From: a virus
Direction: 5' to 3' (one strand)
Virus record (IMG/VR): IMGVR_UViG_3300018080_000121
Location: 32,001 to 96,000 of that record
Length of the DNA stretch: 64,000 bases
Shown: in pieces, positions 19,050 through 36,392 of the stretch
Layout: each line of letters starts with the position of its first letter
Position numbering within the stretch: position 1 is the stretch's first letter
The notes under the pieces: model-generated
Databases searched by the model: none
Seen by the model: the letters and a program-made list of their open reading frames with translations, nothing else
What the model was told of the DNA's origin: nothing
Made by a program: the position numbers and the translations under genes

Positions 19050-19634
19050 ATGGATAGATCTAAAATTCTAATGGGAGCAAGTGTTGCCCCATTGGAGATG
19101 GATGATGAGGATCTTTGGGGACAGCAAGAAGACGCTTCTATCCAGTATGATGTTCTAGAATTAGTTGACGCTATTGATAAGTTAGAGTTTAAGTCTTTAT
19201 ACTTAAACTCAATTAATAATATCAAAGCAGAAACAGTACCTGCTCAACGAGACTTTTGTCAGAAGTTTCTTATAAAAGTAAAAGAATTATATGATTTTGA
19301 GTTTCTCCCACATCCCGAATTAGAAAACCAAATCGACATGAACAACGTTTATGATCTTTTAGAGTTTCTGAATTTTGGGTGTATACCCTTCCTTGGGGAT
19401 GTGTGGAGATTCCTCAAAGTCGATTTAAGAAAAATTGATGTGATATCTTTCTGCACCCAAAACGAGGATAAAGTTATCTCTGAGATTGAGGACCAGATTC
19501 AATCACACGATTATAGCGAGTTAATTTCTATATTTCTTAGAACATATAATAAAGAAAGTATGGTAAGTTGGTTTGCGAGAATGACCCAACGTTATAAAAT
19601 GTTGGTGTTACTAAGAATCGCGGAAGGGATGTAA
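19050..19634 (+). CDS. Hypothetical protein
   Basis: 194-aa ORF, tightly packed in the operon. Confidence 0.65.
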   Translation: MDRSKILMGASVAPLEMDDEDLWGQQEDASIQYDVLELVDAIDKLEFKSLYLNSINNIKAETVPAQRDFCQKFLIKVKELYDFEFLPHPELENQIDMNNVYDLLEFLNFGCIPFLGDVWRFLKVDLRKIDVISFCTQNEDKVISEIEDQIQSHDYSELISIFLRTYNKESMVSWFARMTQRYKMLVLLRIAEGM

Positions 19635-19635
19635 A

Positions 19636-19893
19636 ATGAGTGAATTTCGAATTGAGTTAAAGAAAGGGTCTGCTAAATTAGTGGCTGACCGAGAAGAACT
19701 GGTTGGAGTTTCTGAAACACATGAAGGTCTTGTATTCAATTTCAAGGGCGGTATGAATGTTGTAATACATGATGATTATATGTCCAGTTCTGTGAAGAAA
19801 AGGGTTACTAATGCAGATCGTCAATTTGCTGAGGGAAATCTCATTTTTGATATGGATAATCCTCGGGCACCTGTCCTTGTGGACACCACTTAA
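19636..19893 (+). CDS. Hypothetical protein
   Basis: 85-aa ORF ending the module. Confidence 0.6.
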   Translation: MSEFRIELKKGSAKLVADREELVGVSETHEGLVFNFKGGMNVVIHDDYMSSSVKKRVTNADRQFAEGNLIFDMDNPRAPVLVDTT

Positions 19894-19913
19894 AAATTCT
19901 ATATAAAAATCAA

Positions 19914-19930
19914 GATCTATATATATTAAT
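19914..19930 (+). promoter_or_regulatory. AT-rich promoter-like motif GATCTATATATATTAAT
   Basis: Start of the large intergenic gap; shares the TATATATAT(A/T)A core with 8171-8184. Confidence 0.45.
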
Positions 19931-20132
19931 ATACAGATAGGAATATTTGTATTTACAGATGTTCCTGAATACCAATCAATTAAAACACAGATAAGGGGAT
20001 AAGTTTGCAATCACATAGTCGATTTCGAAAAACGGGAGGTATGGGTTTCTTCCGTTGTCATGGAAAGGGGGTGGGGCGACTGGGTCGTTGGGCAATTCAG
20101 GTTAACCATTAGGGCAGCAAGAAGGGAACGAG

Positions 20133-20309
20133 GTGGCGAAGAAACAGGACGTGAAGAAGCTGAGAAGAAGAGTCATACATTATTATGAGCAGGCAGCGCT
20201 ACCTGTACTTATTAAAGAAGCGCAGGATCTTGGACTACGAATTCCGAAAGCCATTTTAATGGAATTTGAAAAAACGCGTCAAGATTCTCCAATGCACAAC
20301 CAAGGCTAA
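20133..20309 (+). CDS. Small basic hypothetical protein (58 aa, GTG start)
   Basis: Translated by hand: MAKKQDVKKLRRRVIHYYEQAALPVLIKEAQDLGLRIPKAILMEFEKTRQDSPMHNQG; AAGGGA upstream; below the ORF-track cutoff. Confidence 0.45.
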   Translation: MAKKQDVKKLRRRVIHYYEQAALPVLIKEAQDLGLRIPKAILMEFEKTRQDSPMHNQG

Positions 20310-20337
20310 ATAACGATAGTGATGACCAACCTCGACG

Positions 20338-20366
20338 TTGGAGATTGCTATTGTATCGTATATAAT
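20338..20366 (+). promoter_or_regulatory. Sigma70/sigmaA-type promoter TTGGAG-N17-TATAAT
   Basis: Perfect -10 hexamer at 20361-20366, 4/6 match -35 at 20338-20343, 17-nt spacer; ~50 nt upstream of the long hairpin. Confidence 0.55.
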
Positions 20367-20416
20367 GATCGACGCACCCGACTGCGATCGATGGTTATGT
20401 CAAATTTAGACAATGC

Positions 20417-20528
20417 GAGTCGCTAGCACTTGACTGCTAGGAACTCCATTCTAATCTTATGTCTAATCCTTAATTGGATTAGGTGTTTGATTGGAATGGG
20501 GTTTCTAGTGGTCAAGTGCTGGCGACTC
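20417..20528 (+). ncRNA. Candidate structured RNA: 112-nt hairpin (40-bp plus 11-bp stems)
   Basis: 20417-20456 pairs with 20489-20528 (34 WC + 6 G.U, no mismatch); 2x2 U/U loop; 20459-20469 pairs with 20476-20486 (8 WC + 3 G.U); 6-nt loop TTAATT. Confidence 0.7.
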
Positions 20529-20588
20529 ACGCCTAAACCGTTTTCCGTTTTTGTCGTTTTTCGTTTGAATATTTTCGGGAGGTGCTTA

Positions 20589-21161
20589 ATGAGATTTGTC
20601 TCGGCTGAGCAATTTATAGAAAAGCTTGGCTGCAGGGTCTATCCGATAACACTGATTAAGTTTATGTTGAATAAACGGAGAATTTTACGTTACATTTCAG
20701 CAGCGGCAGGTGATGACTTTAAAGCAGCTAGCTACCAGGTGGGTCCAGAAGGATGCGAAGTATGTGAAAGTAAGAAAGAACAGAATATTCTATGTAGACA
20801 ACATACATCTATCCATCGTGTTCTTAATACTGACACAGTAGCATTTGATTTGGATACCAATTTGTACTTCTACAAGAATGAGATTTTTCGTATGGTAGGT
20901 AATCGACTTGTAATCGTATATTGTCCACATACAAAATTGATTATGGGTGAGCTTACCGACGATAAAGTACGGAAGGTAATTCCAATCACTGTAGAAGACC
21001 CTAAACTTACCTCCCTTCCTCAATATGCGAATGTTAAGAAATTTATATCTACCGAATTGATGTATAATCATATGAAATGCTGGTTTGACAGGGAGTTTTC
21101 AATAGTTACACTTCCAGATAATGGCGGAAGTAGTAATTGGTGTCTTATTACTAACAGATAG
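20589..21161 (+). CDS. Hypothetical protein with CxxC..CxxH Zn-finger-like motif
   Basis: Same frame as ORF-track 20430-21161, but ATG at 20589 follows GGGAGGTG; CEVC..CRQH. Confidence 0.7.
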   Translation: MRFVSAEQFIEKLGCRVYPITLIKFMLNKRRILRYISAAAGDDFKAASYQVGPEGCEVCESKKEQNILCRQHTSIHRVLNTDTVAFDLDTNLYFYKNEIFRMVGNRLVIVYCPHTKLIMGELTDDKVRKVIPITVEDPKLTSLPQYANVKKFISTELMYNHMKCWFDREFSIVTLPDNGGSSNWCLITNR

Positions 21162-21174
21162 GAGGATTTAAGAA

Positions 21175-22107
21175 ATGAGTAGTTACGAAGAGTACGCGGG
21201 TCTGGGAGAGACCGGGTATGAAGATCAAGAGCCAGTAAAGCCGGAGGATGAGTTTTTCCACGCCTTGTATATAGCTGGAAACTCAAGAGAAAACCATGCG
21301 GGTATTACTGAGCAATCAGGAAAGTTGCAGATAAGAGGTGTTGAGTATAATCTAGATGCCATAAATATGGTTATTACCCATGTTAAGAAAGTTCTGGTGA
21401 AGTCATCGAGAGATGCAAAGGGCAGAGAGAAACTGGAATGCTTCAGTTATAAAAAAGAGCCAAGACCTCCGTGGCATGGATTTGAAAATCGAGTATGTGG
21501 TTCTAACTCTGCTGAAAGAGCTGCAGATCAATGGTGCCAAGACTGTCGTGAACAGATTATCGTCGCCGGACTTTATTGTGATGCAAAGGGCAAACCGATC
21601 CTCAGCGAGGAGAAGAGACCCATTTTTATCTTTCTCAGGGGTAAGGGTATGAAATACAGTAATGTATCTGAGTACCTTGGGAGCATGTTTAAGTTGGATC
21701 TTGAACCAATGTTCCAACCTGTTACGGAAGAGAGCAAAGCGTTTGAGAAGAAAGTTGTGAATAACAAACGATTTGTTACTCAAATTGGAATGGGAAAACA
21801 ATCCTCGAATTATGGCGATAAAGATGTTTTCACTTTGACCAATACGGTTCAACTCGAAAACAAAAACGTACTTGAAGTATTGAAGATTGCGAAGCAGACT
21901 CAGGATAAATTCAATGAGAAAATGGACTGGACAAGGACTCCATCGACAAGTGGATATTCTCCGCAACAAGCTCCTGTTGACCAGTCCAATGTGATTCCTG
22001 ATTCTGAAGGGGGAGAAGCTCCAAAGCAACAAGAAGCATCTCCCGCTCAGCAACCACAACAAGCTCCAAAAGACGAGACCTTTAATTTTGAAGACATCAA
22101 TTTCTAA
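21175..22107 (+). CDS. Probable single-stranded DNA-binding protein
   Basis: Beta-rich core, Q/P/A linker and acidic-aromatic C-tail DETFNFEDINF typical of SSBs; first large gene of the replication module. Confidence 0.5.
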   Translation: MSSYEEYAGLGETGYEDQEPVKPEDEFFHALYIAGNSRENHAGITEQSGKLQIRGVEYNLDAINMVITHVKKVLVKSSRDAKGREKLECFSYKKEPRPPWHGFENRVCGSNSAERAADQWCQDCREQIIVAGLYCDAKGKPILSEEKRPIFIFLRGKGMKYSNVSEYLGSMFKLDLEPMFQPVTEESKAFEKKVVNNKRFVTQIGMGKQSSNYGDKDVFTLTNTVQLENKNVLEVLKIAKQTQDKFNEKMDWTRTPSTSGYSPQQAPVDQSNVIPDSEGGEAPKQQEASPAQQPQQAPKDETFNFEDINF

Positions 22108-32388: not shown

Positions 32389-33393
32389 ATGAAAGCTATT
32401 GTAATAGCGGACATCCATTTGAGTATGTACTCAAATGATCCAGTGGTTGAAGGGATCTCCATGAGACTGTTCTATTTGAATAGTGTCTTGAGAAGAATCG
32501 CAGACTATGCGATTAAACATAAAATTGATATCATCATAATTGCTGGTGATATCTATCACACAAAGAGTTCTATCCATGCGGTTGCTCAGGACGTTCTTCT
32601 TGAATATGTGAGAGACTATCAGGATCTTCTCTTTTATGTAATTGATGGAAACCATGATATGTCTTCCAAGTCTGGTAAGGGAGTGTCTGGGTTAAAGTGT
32701 TTGGACAATGAACCAAATGTGTATATGATGCACGAGCCAACGATGGTCGAGAACATCTTCTTTGTTCCGTGGAATGCGAAAACGATGGTTGAGACTGTGA
32801 AGAATGGACAAGCTGATTATCTGATATCTCATTTCGGATTAAATGAAGCGATGTTGAATAGCGGAATCTCAATTATTTCTGATCTTGGAATGAAGGATCT
32901 GGCGCATTATAAATGGTGTCTTCTTGGACATTATCACATGCCACAAGAGTTAGGGAATGTGATAATTCCAGGATCAATTATCCAGTTGGATTGGGGCGAG
33001 AAGCATGAGGAGAAACGATTTATAATTCTTGACACAGATAAGCATACGTGGAAGTCTGTTCCTACACAGGGTTATGTTGAACACCATGCACTTGAACTTA
33101 CAGATGAAAATAAAGAAGATGTTCTCAAACTCGCGCGTAAGTTGAAAGACAAGGGCCATCAAGTTAAGATTAATCGAATGACAGTCGGTGTAGATATGGC
33201 TGAATTGCAGGATGAGTTTGTGGTAGTTGATAAAGTCGAGAAGGATATCACAAATCGTGGTATTGACTCATCCATGTCAATGTCTGATATCTTCAAGAGA
33301 TATATGGAGATTGAAGGAATACCAAAAGAGAAGTGGCCTGCATATGAAGCTATGGCGGTGAAAATTGTGAATACAGCAAGGGAGGGTTTATGA
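32389..33393 (+). CDS. sbcD: SbcD/Mre11/gp47-like metallophosphoesterase nuclease
   Basis: IADIH, AGDIYH, DGNHD, SHFG, LLGHYH, PGSIIQLDWGE. Confidence 0.9.
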   Translation: MKAIVIADIHLSMYSNDPVVEGISMRLFYLNSVLRRIADYAIKHKIDIIIIAGDIYHTKSSIHAVAQDVLLEYVRDYQDLLFYVIDGNHDMSSKSGKGVSGLKCLDNEPNVYMMHEPTMVENIFFVPWNAKTMVETVKNGQADYLISHFGLNEAMLNSGISIISDLGMKDLAHYKWCLLGHYHMPQELGNVIIPGSIIQLDWGEKHEEKRFIILDTDKHTWKSVPTQGYVEHHALELTDENKEDVLKLARKLKDKGHQVKINRMTVGVDMAELQDEFVVVDKVEKDITNRGIDSSMSMSDIFKRYMEIEGIPKEKWPAYEAMAVKIVNTAREGL

Positions 33394-33905
33394 AATTCCA
33401 AGTAAAATTTGAGGCTCCTGGTGACGGAAGATTGACAGAGGAACCTCCTGGAGAGATTGGAATTGACATGGTGGATATGATTAGAGATGAACTCAATCGA
33501 CCAAATCTTGACGTAGATCTGATTAATGGAGAGATTCAATGTCCAAGATATCGTTCATCTTACTATGTCAATGTTACTGAAGCAACAGCGAGAACCATCT
33601 CATTATTCTCGGGAAGAAACAAGGTAACAGTTAAAGTTCCAGATAGCTATCTGTCAAAATATGAGAACTTTATCTTTCGTGAAACCTTCTATGATCCGGT
33701 GAATAATGTTCTTGAAATGTTTCGGGTATGGGTATTACGGCGACCAAAAAAATTGACTTGTGTATTTCCCCACTATGAACTAAACGAACAGTGGTTGATT
33801 GAGGATTGGAAGGAAGCTGGATGTCCTCTCAAGTGGGGATTCAATGGGGAAAATGGTTCGAACGCAAAGAAGTTAGCGGAGAAGAAGAATGGGAAAAAAA
33901 GTTGA
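33390..33905 (+). CDS. Hypothetical protein inserted between sbcD and sbcC
   Basis: 171-aa ORF with GGGAGG RBS. Confidence 0.65.
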   Translation: MKFQVKFEAPGDGRLTEEPPGEIGIDMVDMIRDELNRPNLDVDLINGEIQCPRYRSSYYVNVTEATARTISLFSGRNKVTVKVPDSYLSKYENFIFRETFYDPVNNVLEMFRVWVLRRPKKLTCVFPHYELNEQWLIEDWKEAGCPLKWGFNGENGSNAKKLAEKKNGKKS

Positions 33906-34191
33906 TCTAGGTGGGACAGAAAAAGGAGCGCCACCTCAAAAACAAAAGATGATCTATTTTGGTATACCCACAACCATTGCGATGATGATGGACATATACA
34001 CATACGAACCTGCAAAGAGATATGTTGACGCAATGAAACAAACTCTACTCAGTTCTGTAAGTCTCAAAGAGTTGAGAAAAGAGATTTGTACAATGTTTGG
34101 TATGAAGAGTATGAGAAAACTCAAAAAGCAACGAGAGAACCAGGCGAAAATCTTAACTGCGATCTTTGGTGATCGTATATGGGGTGAATGA
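33889..34191 (+). CDS. Hypothetical basic protein
   Basis: 100-aa ORF in the tightly packed operon. Confidence 0.55.
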   Translation: MGKKVDLGGTEKGAPPQKQKMIYFGIPTTIAMMMDIYTYEPAKRYVDAMKQTLLSSVSLKELRKEICTMFGMKSMRKLKKQRENQAKILTAIFGDRIWGE

Positions 34192-36392
34192 TGAAAAAAG
34201 TTACCTTTCTGAAACAAGGAATGGAGAACTTTTGTAACCATATCGAACCAATGGAATTGGAGTTTGGAGAAGGTCAACTGGTTCTGGTTACAGGTCCAAA
34301 TGGAGCAGGAAAGACTTCTCTATTCCAAGCACTTCCATATACGTTATATGGTCAGTGTGAGAAAGGAAGAGGGGATGATGTTCTTAATGACAAAACTGAA
34401 AAGAATTGTCATACATGGACCGAGTTCGATATTGATGGTCAAGGGTATCGAGTAGATAGATATGTTAAGTATACAAGGCTCGGAAATACTGTAACATTAA
34501 CAAGGAAAGGAGAAAAACGCCCATACAAGAAAGGTCATAAAGAAGTAGTACCAGAAGTTGAAAGACTTCTAGTTCCATATAAACTCTTTATGAATACTTT
34601 ACTATTTTCTCAAAAAGTGAAAACATTCTTTACCGACTTAACTGATTCTCAGCAAAAAGAAATCTTTCGAAAGATCCTCACTCTTGATGATTATGTATTA
34701 TACCATCAGGGCGCCGGAGTTGAAGAAAGAGATATTGAGAATAGAATCATTGAGTTGATAGGAATGACGAGTGTTAATGAACAGTTGTTAGTTGATGCAG
34801 AGCAACAACTTAAACAGACTAACCAAGCAATGATGGATTTCTATCGACAAAAAGGAGAGGAGATTGAAACTCTTACTCGACAAATCGAAGCTAGAAAGAC
34901 AATTGTTGCCAATGGATCTGCTCATTGGGAAAGTTTTGTCAAGCAAAACTTGGATGACAAACTTGCTAATGTTAGCAGTCGCATTGGGTTTGCAAGTCAG
35001 AAGTTTAACAATGTTGCGAAAGAGTTGGATGCAATAGTTGAGAAAATTGAATCTCAAGCTGGATGGAAAGAAGCTGAACTTGAGGGCGCGGCAGCTACAG
35101 CTAGAACAAAAGCTGAACAAGAGTTAAGTGAGCAACGTCACAAGATAAATGCAGAGTGGCAACCAAAAGATGAAGAATTTGAGAAGGAGAGAGAACTACT
35201 TATACACAAGAAACATTCAGCGGAGAAGCAACAGGCATCAACTCATACAGAAATGCTATCAACTAAGAAGCTAATTGGAGAATTAGAGGAAAGTTTAGAA
35301 ATGGAAGCTCCTGTATGTCCAACGTGTCTTCAGGATATTACAGATGAATCAAAAAAGAAAATCCAAGAGCAAGTGGATTTTACATTTGATCGGATGGAGA
35401 AATTACGAGGGTTCTATGAGCAACTTACTGAAGAAATTTACGAATGGGACTCAAAACTTTCAGATTTAGCTTCTAAAAGAAATGAGTGGAAGGAGCAAAA
35501 AAATAAGAAAATAGAAAAAGCGGTAGATGAGAACACAAAAACTCTAACATCTATTAACGCTAGACTCCAGAATGCAATGGTGAAATTGGAGATCGTCGTA
35601 AAAGAACAAAAAGAGGCAGCAATCGCTGAAAGCGCTAAAGAGAAAGCAAAATATTCTCTGCAGGTTGACGAACTTCAAATGGAAAAAGATGGAGTTGTGA
35701 AATTGATTGAAGCTAGAGAAGAAGCTCTCAGAACTTTAAATGAGAGTAAGTCGCAATTGTCTTTAGCGGAACAGGCTCTTAAGTCGAAAGAGGAAGAAGA
35801 GTTTGACAAGTCTCTTCTTAAATCCTTAGAAGAAAAAATTAAGGAATGTAAGAAGAATATTGTTGACTATAAAAAGAATCTTGAAGAGTTGAGAGAGCAA
35901 AAGGTTATGGCAGAGTTCTGGAGAAAAGGGTTCTCACCCTCCGGGATTCAAAGTATGTTAATTGATGACGCAATACCATTCATGAATGAGAAGATTACTC
36001 ATTATATGGATAAGCTGTCTAATGGTCGATACCAGGTCAAATTTGATACACTGAAACCCACAAAAGATGGAAAGGTCTTTAGAGATAAGATTTATGTTGA
36101 ACTCTTTGACACCTTTACTCACTCTGATGCACGGGTAAAATTCTCAGGTGGTCAAGAGAGATTAGTAGATATTGGAACAATCTTAACACTTTGCGATCTA
36201 CAAAGTATGATACAAGATGTTGAATTCAATATCCTACTGTTTGACGAAATCTTCGATGCTCTAGATGACAATAACATTGCTCAAGTTGCGAATCTTATTA
36301 AAAGGGTCTCAATGAATAAGTGGATTGGTGTAATTTCACATCGACATATTGACCAGATAGAAGCAGACGAGGTATTGGAATTCAGGGGGTGA
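34188..36392 (+). CDS. sbcC: SbcC/Rad50/gp46-like ABC ATPase
   Basis: GPNGAGKT, coiled coils with CPTC zinc hook, signature FSGGQ, LLFDEIFDALD, ISH. Confidence 0.95.
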   Translation: MMKKVTFLKQGMENFCNHIEPMELEFGEGQLVLVTGPNGAGKTSLFQALPYTLYGQCEKGRGDDVLNDKTEKNCHTWTEFDIDGQGYRVDRYVKYTRLGNTVTLTRKGEKRPYKKGHKEVVPEVERLLVPYKLFMNTLLFSQKVKTFFTDLTDSQQKEIFRKILTLDDYVLYHQGAGVEERDIENRIIELIGMTSVNEQLLVDAEQQLKQTNQAMMDFYRQKGEEIETLTRQIEARKTIVANGSAHWESFVKQNLDDKLANVSSRIGFASQKFNNVAKELDAIVEKIESQAGWKEAELEGAAATARTKAEQELSEQRHKINAEWQPKDEEFEKERELLIHKKHSAEKQQASTHTEMLSTKKLIGELEESLEMEAPVCPTCLQDITDESKKKIQEQVDFTFDRMEKLRGFYEQLTEEIYEWDSKLSDLASKRNEWKEQKNKKIEKAVDENTKTLTSINARLQNAMVKLEIVVKEQKEAAIAESAKEKAKYSLQVDELQMEKDGVVKLIEAREEALRTLNESKSQLSLAEQALKSKEEEEFDKSLLKSLEEKIKECKKNIVDYKKNLEELREQKVMAEFWRKGFSPSGIQSMLIDDAIPFMNEKITHYMDKLSNGRYQVKFDTLKPTKDGKVFRDKIYVELFDTFTHSDARVKFSGGQERLVDIGTILTLCDLQSMIQDVEFNILLFDEIFDALDDNNIAQVANLIKRVSMNKWIGVISHRHIDQIEADEVLEFRG

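Follow-up and report, generated by a model that had tools for sequence, protein, structure and literature searches.

A conserved, strand-specific long hairpin heads the p190 operon in a clade of jumbo phages

A 51-pair hairpin lies between the genes p58 and p190 of a jumbo phage, and hairpins of the same kind precede p190 in its relatives. The structure is conserved, strand-specific, unique in the genome and fixed in position with respect to p190. Judged from comparative sequence data, the hairpin is a real functional element and is most likely a structured part of an mRNA. It is tentatively read here as a cis-acting double-stranded RNA element between p58 and the p190 operon, probably a processing or stability site of the RNase III type.

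The window analyzed is a stretch of 64 kb from a 121-kb IMG/VR contig that is estimated to be 39% complete. The contig encodes two sets of multisubunit RNA polymerase beta/beta', topoisomerase II, a helicase and SbcC/SbcD-like nucleases, and was therefore assigned to a jumbo phage. Nearly all of its genes are located on the + strand, including more than 40 kb of genes downstream of the hairpin, and the + strand of the hairpin is the sense strand for every flanking gene. The features of the region are as follows:

19917–19930, + strand: promoter-like motif of the clade, CTATATATATTAAT, 486 nt upstream of the hairpin, sole copy in the window
20133–20309, + strand: p58, encoding a small basic three-helix protein (KKLRRR...), from alignment; directly upstream of the hairpin in most relatives
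20314–20399, + strand: two small stem-loops in the interval from p58 to the main hairpin, from folding; specific to the window
20339–20366, + strand: sigma70-like site TGGAGA-N16-TATAAT, singled out in the sequence-only reading and probably fortuitous
20417–20528, + strand: main hairpin, with a 40-pair lower stem, a 2x2 U/U loop, an 11-pair upper stem and a TTAATT loop
20529–20545, + strand: unpaired spacer from stem to T-run, about 16–21 nt in most relatives
20546–20576, + strand: T-rich leader (CGTTTTTGTCGTTTTTCGTTT...), its core TTTTTGT conserved in relatives
20577–20582, + strand: Shine-Dalgarno GGGAGG of p190, in the same arrangement in relatives
20589–21161, + strand: p190, encoding a Cys/His-rich protein of 190 aa, from alignment; first gene of p190-p310-AAA ATPase-VWA

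Pairing of the hairpin base by base gives 42 Watson-Crick and 9 G.U pairs. The outer stem (20417–20456/20489–20528) contains 34 Watson-Crick and 6 G.U pairs with zero mismatches, and the inner stem (20459–20469/20476–20486) contains 8 and 3, respectively. Between them is the sole internal loop, a 2x2 T/T loop (20457–20458/20487–20488), and the terminal loop occupies 20470–20475. The sequence-only reading, a preliminary description made from the letters of the DNA, had arrived at the same structure, and the pair list drawn up here reproduced it base for base. It had also pointed out that all nine deviations from a perfect palindrome are wobble-compatible on one strand, and indeed all nine non-Watson-Crick pairs are G.T on the + strand and hence A.C on the − strand. 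The + strand was predicted by RNAfold to fold with an energy of −91.2 kcal/mol (z = −13.4 against 200 dinucleotide shuffles), compared with −69.4 kcal/mol for the − strand; with DNA parameters the values were −40.5 (+) and −33.5 (−). The + strand is favoured over the − strand by 22 kcal/mol under RNA parameters and by 7 under DNA parameters; in energy terms, wobble pairing thus benefits RNA three times as much as DNA. At its base, the stem has a G+C content of 0.49, compared with about 0.38 for the genome, so that the window contains a GC-rich stem-loop of the kind expected of intrinsic terminators, and stems become more AT-rich toward the apex (G+C falling from 0.49 to 0.29). The hairpin loops of the window and of L023, L034, L019, L046 and L043 are almost always composed of A and T only and are often palindromic (TTAATT three times; AATT, TATA). 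With loops that are themselves palindromic, the palindrome of the DNA runs unbroken through its centre, a hint that stems may grow or turn over via palindrome formation at the DNA level.

The hairpin is the longest inverted repeat of the window. It was also found to be the longest palindrome of the 121-kb contig, with a score of 40.5 in an ungapped hairpin scan against 15.5 for the next best, in agreement with a self-BLAST palindrome scan. In the complete 277-kb relative G003, the orthologous hairpin is the longest palindrome by aligned length in self-BLAST (101 nt versus at most 61 nt), although one 60-nt palindrome scores marginally above it; the remaining palindromes are ordinary terminators. 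Thus, one such hairpin is present per genome, as scanned in the contig and in G003. A search of the whole window against Rfam 15 at gathering thresholds returned zero matches, in line with the sequence-only reading, which had recognized no known Rfam family and had proposed such a search. At a permissive E-value, the matches obtained, to unrelated miRNA precursors and to a Wolbachia sRNA, reflected shape alone and all fell far below threshold (47.7 bits versus a gathering threshold of 101.7, and 33.1 versus 65.3).

Searching with p190 yielded 39 related viral contigs and 5 contigs from metagenome-assembled genomes (MAGs). Three of the relatives (L064, L066 and L067) sit in MAGs labelled ANME-2, Promethearchaeota and Thermoplasmatales; these are most likely mis-binned phage contigs from anoxic sediment samples, and the archaeal labels are then not evidence of the host. 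Among cultured phages (INPHARED), no nucleotide match to the region and no protein match to p190 was found, and the RNA polymerase beta subunit has only distant matches (23–34% identity). About 30 loci have a hairpin of 60–150 nt with 27–59 pairs 5' of the start codon of the orthologous p190, and stems of at least 27 pairs are seen in nearly all loci. The distance from the end of the hairpin to the p190 start is usually 48–62 nt (61 nt in the window) and reaches a maximum of about 90 nt. In the most distant relatives, the stem-loop is shortened to 12–27 pairs or is absent from this position; in the distant relatives L042 and L043, a shorter stem-loop is located 0–12 nt after the promoter motif and so belongs to the primary leader. 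In one sub-lineage (L007:495-818, L066:480-724), the hairpin has about 15 pairs, lies 190–240 nt upstream of p190 and is followed by several AACTTT(T)AAAAC-like repeats.

The pairing is conserved while the sequence is not. The p190 orthologues of hairpin-bearing phages are just 40–67% identical, and the hairpin sequences are hardly alignable, the three closest pairs being 66% identical. When the stems were lined up from the base, no position lacked any of the four Watson-Crick pair types. Covariation among homologues, which the sequence-only reading had proposed as a check, was examined in the closest pairs: L019 and L023 differ across 50 pairs by 9 double compensatory and 5 single wobble changes, and L026 and L040 across 40 pairs by 2 double and 11 wobble changes, with no broken pair in either comparison. 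Two of the outcomes named beforehand as damaging to a functional interpretation were not observed: no uncompensated substitution was seen in these pairs, and an inverted-duplication artefact is ruled out by the occurrence of the hairpin in about 30 independent assemblies. Templated (hairpin-guided) mutation can likewise produce compensatory changes in a palindrome, without selection on RNA.

The strand preference of the imperfections was then compared across the loci, with the hairpins delimited without G.U pairs and their arms aligned with a strand-neutral score. The transition mismatches were found to be G.U-compatible on the + strand in 86 cases and on the − strand in 18, a split with a binomial p of 8e-12 against a 1:1 and of 4e-4 against a 2:1 expectation. 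In addition, 29 of 30 hairpins are more stable on the + strand, the difference averaging −9.9 kcal/mol (Wilcoxon p = 2e-6). At fourfold-degenerate sites of + strand genes, the relevant composition asymmetry is just 1.23-fold, and strand-biased mutation therefore cannot account for the 86:18 pattern. Selection on a single-stranded + sense molecule, as suggested earlier from the single copy in the window, is well supported by these comparisons: the recurrence in about 30 loci, the compensated changes, the wobble asymmetry and the folding energies all point to it. Many relatives carry one or two copies of a TAGCAYCGC(T)-like motif in the 5' arm, either within it or at its base (20421–20442 in the window; L040:1329-1375). 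The count of TAGCAYCG as a genome-wide signal is at or below expectation, and as the motif is not enriched elsewhere, it may be a sequence-specific recognition site within an otherwise free-running stem.

The genes on the two sides of the hairpin behave differently among the relatives. Downstream, the block p190-p310-AAA ATPase-VWA is strictly conserved. Upstream, the order RNA polymerase beta-p194-p85 gives way to 0.5–3.5 kb that vary between relatives; the hairpin always accompanies p190 while this upstream gene content changes. The interval between p85 and p58 (L002-L010) appears as an insertion hot spot of 0.5–3.5 kb, bounded by the promoter motif and the hairpin. At this promoter/hairpin boundary near position 20000, the G+C content of the window steps from 0.33–0.37 (1–20 kb) to 0.38–0.42 (20–64 kb), which suggests two modules differing in history or expression class. 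SbcD-like and SbcC-like genes (32389–36392), of the palindrome-cutting Mre11/Rad50 type, are located 12 kb downstream of what is the only long palindrome of the genome.

The p190 protein has no Pfam or PHROG match. Its AF2 model (pLDDT 75) gave no acceptable fold match (Foldseek E of at least 0.12, VIA Z of at most 3.2), and a feature match to Helicase_C_4 in the ESM Atlas (0.87) was rejected as below the meaningful level. The p310 protein (21175–22107) contains an invariant Cys cluster with a weak double-zinc-ribbon match, and the ESM Atlas shows a resemblance to phage clusters with Pam3_Gp34 or DUF5895 (scores 0.94–0.96); a function was confirmed by no Pfam, PHROG or PDB match, and DUF5895 itself was not matched. 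Members of the p58 family have about 45–60 aa, with the signature KKLRRRIEDFLRK followed by a helix-turn-helix-like stretch. The AF2 model of p58 is a three-helix bundle (pLDDT 88.7) without a significant fold match. A marginal profile match to the PKZ Z-alpha domain (E = 0.008, 25 positions) was rejected and attributed to generic helix-turn-helix likeness, because p58 has no beta wing. L041 contains two p58 copies in tandem, and L015 keeps the hairpin without an adjacent p58.

The flanks of the hairpin were examined for signals of transcription. The sigma70-type promoter that the sequence-only reading had counted as part of the element did not withstand comparison: sigma70-like sites in the 2-kb region occur at chance frequency (6 found, 6.2 expected), and a −10-like hexamer within 120 nt of the hairpin is absent in 12 of 30 relatives and elsewhere varies widely in distance. 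Several loci leave no gap between the hairpin and the stop codon of the gene before it. The motif CTATATATATTAAT behaves differently. One match is present in the window against 0.08 expected, 14 exact copies are present in the complete G003 (L050-L063), and a near-exact copy is found 0–680 nt upstream of the hairpin in 13 relatives. About half of the G003 copies are followed by a Shine-Dalgarno sequence, judged within the 40 nt shown downstream. Typically, the motif precedes a GT-rich stretch and a T-run shortly before a ribosome-binding site, as in ordinary leaders. Its sequence context thus suggests that CTATATATATTAAT is probably the clade's own promoter.

On the 3' side, the hairpin does not have the geometry of a terminator. 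The sequence-only reading had described four CGTTT units in a U-rich tail. The units are present (20539, 20546, 20555 and 20562), but the tail is not specific to the hairpin: T-runs also occur in hairpin-free leaders after CTATATATATTAAT, so that TTTTTGT is a general feature of leaders and not the tail of the hairpin. An extension of the stem by TTTAG (20405–20409) and CTAAA (20533–20537) had likewise been proposed; both sequences are there, but pairing of flank and spacer in relatives is no better than with shuffled spacers (z of about −2 to +1.7 where the stem is correctly delimited). Instead of a U-tract within about 0–2 nt of the 3' end of the stem, most loci have a spacer of 16–21 nt. The T-run is only 3–30 nt from the Shine-Dalgarno sequence of p190, which leaves the downstream gene no room for a promoter of its own, contrary to what is expected after a terminator; the p190 message would therefore be transcribed through or from the hairpin region. 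A consensus scan of 19500–21500 found no terminator-like site. Ordinary terminators in these phages have stems of 12–20 pairs with the T-run directly after, whereas the hairpin is 3–5 times longer. The distance between stem and T-run and the generality of T-runs in leaders thus speak against a classical intrinsic terminator, a reading that was rejected.

What could such a hairpin do? Of the roles put forward in the sequence-only reading, an RNase III-processed leader and an attenuator are compatible with the anatomy of the region. The preferred, still tentative, explanation is the double-stranded RNA element. A + sense polycistronic message, probably starting at CTATATATATTAAT, would cross p58 and then the hairpin, and would continue through a short unstructured U-rich leader into p190 and the following operon. 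Host RNase III would cut the stem. Such processing would give the part of the message that carries p58 and variable accessory genes a fate separate from that of the p190 operon, with consequences for expression, and the processed p190 leader would be short, unstructured and U-rich, of about the length seen in the primary transcripts of the clade. In a close variant, the hairpin would be purely structural and act as an exonuclease barrier in both directions.

RNase III, a universal bacterial enzyme, cleaves RNA duplexes from about two helical turns upward. A near-perfect duplex of 27–59 pairs is a substrate for this enzyme, which makes processing of the stem the likeliest mechanism; a duplex of at least about 20 pairs on the sense strand of its neighbours is present in nearly all loci. 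Stems of 27 pairs or more exceed what a terminator or a 5' stabilizer needs and are paired over their whole length, which fits an enzyme recognizing double-stranded RNA. No RNase III (PF14622) or double-stranded RNA-binding domain (PF00035) was found to be encoded in five related phage genomes, two of them complete, and the host enzyme must therefore be assumed. Counting against this reading is the presence of one hairpin per genome, compared with several sites in T7-type phages. The A/T-only, often palindromic loops and the AT-rich apex would be equally expected from extrusion or turnover of a palindrome at the DNA level.

An attenuator or insulator at the head of the operon is an unlikely alternative. 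The RNA polymerase would be paused or stopped at the hairpin, and read-through would be timed, possibly by p58 in the manner of lambda N or conAn. The sole copy of the promoter-like motif in 64 kb lies upstream, a gene for a small Arg-rich three-helix protein, p58, directly precedes the hairpin in most loci, more than 40 kb of + strand genes follow, and long stems confer antitermination resistance in pLS20 (PMC10325885). The T-run that comes after the hairpin would also fit, were it not about 16–21 unpaired nucleotides off the stem, with flanks that pair no more than shuffled ones, and were similar T-runs not carried by hairpin-free ordinary leaders. Moreover, the clade already makes ordinary terminators from 12–20-pair stems with a direct T-run, L015 has the hairpin without an adjacent p58, and pairing is conserved over the whole length, beyond the stem base. 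In a more specific and rather improbable form of this idea, p58 and the hairpin would constitute a two-part timing switch, in which the nascent hairpin halts or marks transcription complexes coming from the early-type promoter, and p58, by recognizing it, licenses read-through into the replication block of more than 40 kb. Such a switch would be N/nut-like or conAn-like, in a phage with its own multisubunit RNA polymerases.

Also rather improbable is a hairpin acting in single-stranded + DNA, either as a programmed hairpin of the lagging strand, cut by the SbcCD-like nuclease of the phage so as to start recombination-dependent replication, or as a strand-specific priming signal of the sso/ssi type. 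The hairpin is strand-specific and imperfect, as ssDNA initiation signals (sso/ssi/Frpo) are, and is present in a single copy per genome. Its palindromic centre is AT-rich, with the AT content rising toward the apex; it heads replication and recombination genes, and SbcC/SbcD-like genes of the phage lie 12 kb downstream. In folds of the two strands with DNA parameters, G.T is the least harmful DNA mismatch. However, RNA gains three times as much from wobble pairing, the position is fixed to the leader and Shine-Dalgarno sequence of one gene, and the 12–14-pair stem-loops in the primary leaders of distant relatives are too short for this role. Phages with double-stranded DNA have no obligatory single-stranded stage, and the cumulative GC skew of a complete relative has no inflection at the hairpin, so that this measure gives no sign of a replication origin there.

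The chance is slim that the hairpin is a translational operator of the T4 gene 32 type, whose structure would nucleate cooperative binding of an operon-encoded single-stranded DNA-binding protein (SSB) on the U-rich leader. Downstream of a very stable structure there are indeed about 55 nt of unpaired, U/A-rich leader, the Shine-Dalgarno sequence among them, the operon heads replication genes, and both p190 and p310 contain motifs resembling Cys/His metal sites. Against this, five related genomes gave no match to gp32 (PF08804), neither p190 nor p310 has a recognizable SSB family or fold, T-runs occur in many other leaders of the clade, and a 50-pair stem far exceeds what nucleation needs. Slimmer still is the chance that the hairpin, once excised, acts in trans as a stable RNA, such as a decoy or sponge capturing a double-stranded RNA-binding host factor or defence sensor. 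A long near-perfect duplex kept in shape and not in sequence would suit such a role, as would the recurrence of TAGCAYCGC in the 5' arm without enrichment elsewhere in the genomes; the hairpin nevertheless has no dedicated flanking promoter and terminator pair, its position is tied to the leader of one gene, and neither an Rfam precedent nor a sign of accumulation is available. A neutral palindrome or assembly artefact, which inverted duplication could create and templated repair homogenize, is effectively refuted and next to impossible given about 30 independent assemblies from different samples, persistence across p190s of 40–67% identity while the hairpin sequence turns over with its pairs preserved, and a strand-asymmetric wobble with p = 8e-12 against 1:1.

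Comparison provides unusually clean evidence for function, and the structure itself is a simple hairpin. The RNA signals of jumbo phages with their own multisubunit RNA polymerases are almost unexplored, and the present clade has no cultured member. Comparative data alone revealed a single-copy, strand-specific 50-pair element joining a hypervariable accessory region and a conserved replication-associated operon. A promoter-like motif found across the clade and a small, basic, co-conserved protein emerged from the same comparisons. Should the hairpin be an RNase III site, these phages would depend at one key junction on an RNA-processing enzyme of the host; an attenuator or DNA-level hairpin would instead be an unusual control point, for an early-to-middle switch or for replication. 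In either case, the hairpin offers a precise, testable handle through clean strand-swap mutations.

How does the hairpin compare with known systems? A 6S-like RNA polymerase trap, one of the roles proposed in the sequence-only reading, is unlikely, as the internal loop measures 2x2 nt without a large central bubble and no Rfam 6S match was obtained. The lambda nut site consists of boxA and a short boxB hairpin, and the HK022 put RNA of two bulged stem-loops of defined shape. This likeness was considered solely because the adjacent small protein p58 is Arg-rich; the hairpin has no Rfam match and is a single long, nearly uninterrupted stem. The PeSL (promoter-early stem-loop) cassettes of T4-type phages are short and multi-copy. 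As in PeSLs, a promoter motif and a stem-loop bound a hypervariable gene region, whereas the present hairpin is very long and single-copy.

With sso of rolling-circle plasmids, the M13 minus-strand origin and F Frpo, the hairpin shares a long imperfect structure on one strand in which G.T is tolerated. Those replicons have an obligatory ssDNA stage, whereas the present element belongs to a jumbo phage with double-stranded DNA and keeps to the leader of a gene. The T4 gene 32 operator resembles it in having a stable 5' structure and a long unstructured A/U-rich leader to the ribosome-binding site ahead of replication genes, but the T4 structure is a small pseudoknot and no gp32-like protein is recognizable here.

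TerR of plasmid pLS20 has a 15-pair stem with a U-tract directly after it and is resistant to antitermination (PMC10325885). Terminators of this type are defined by a stem of at least 14 pairs and a directly trailing U-tract of at least 7, and TerR function depends on stem length and not on sequence (PMC10325885). Like TerR, the hairpin has an unusually long stem and marks the boundary of an operon, and both belong to mobile elements whose operons are long and co-directional. However, its stem of 27–59 pairs, although long enough, is 3–4 times longer, and the T-run begins about 18 unpaired nucleotides off the stem and 3–30 nt from the Shine-Dalgarno sequence. The lack of a U-tract directly trailing the stem thus speaks against a long-stem terminator of the TerR type.

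RNase III processing hairpins are found in phage polycistronic mRNAs, namely at the T7 R-sites, in the lambda N-leader and at the SP82 early mRNA sites. On this comparison, the hairpin would work most like those of the T7, lambda or SP82 messages. It differs from them in being much longer and more perfect (27–59 pairs) and in occurring once per genome where they occur several times, and sequence similarity is absent. The context of RNase III and RNA processing has been reviewed (PMC3867540, PMC11780869). Overall, the hairpin and these processing sites have several features in common: 1) a hairpin located between cistrons or in a leader, on the sense strand of an operon of co-directional phage genes, 2) a duplex of more than two helical turns, 3) a position shortly upstream of a ribosome-binding site, and 4) in the window copy, an internal loop.
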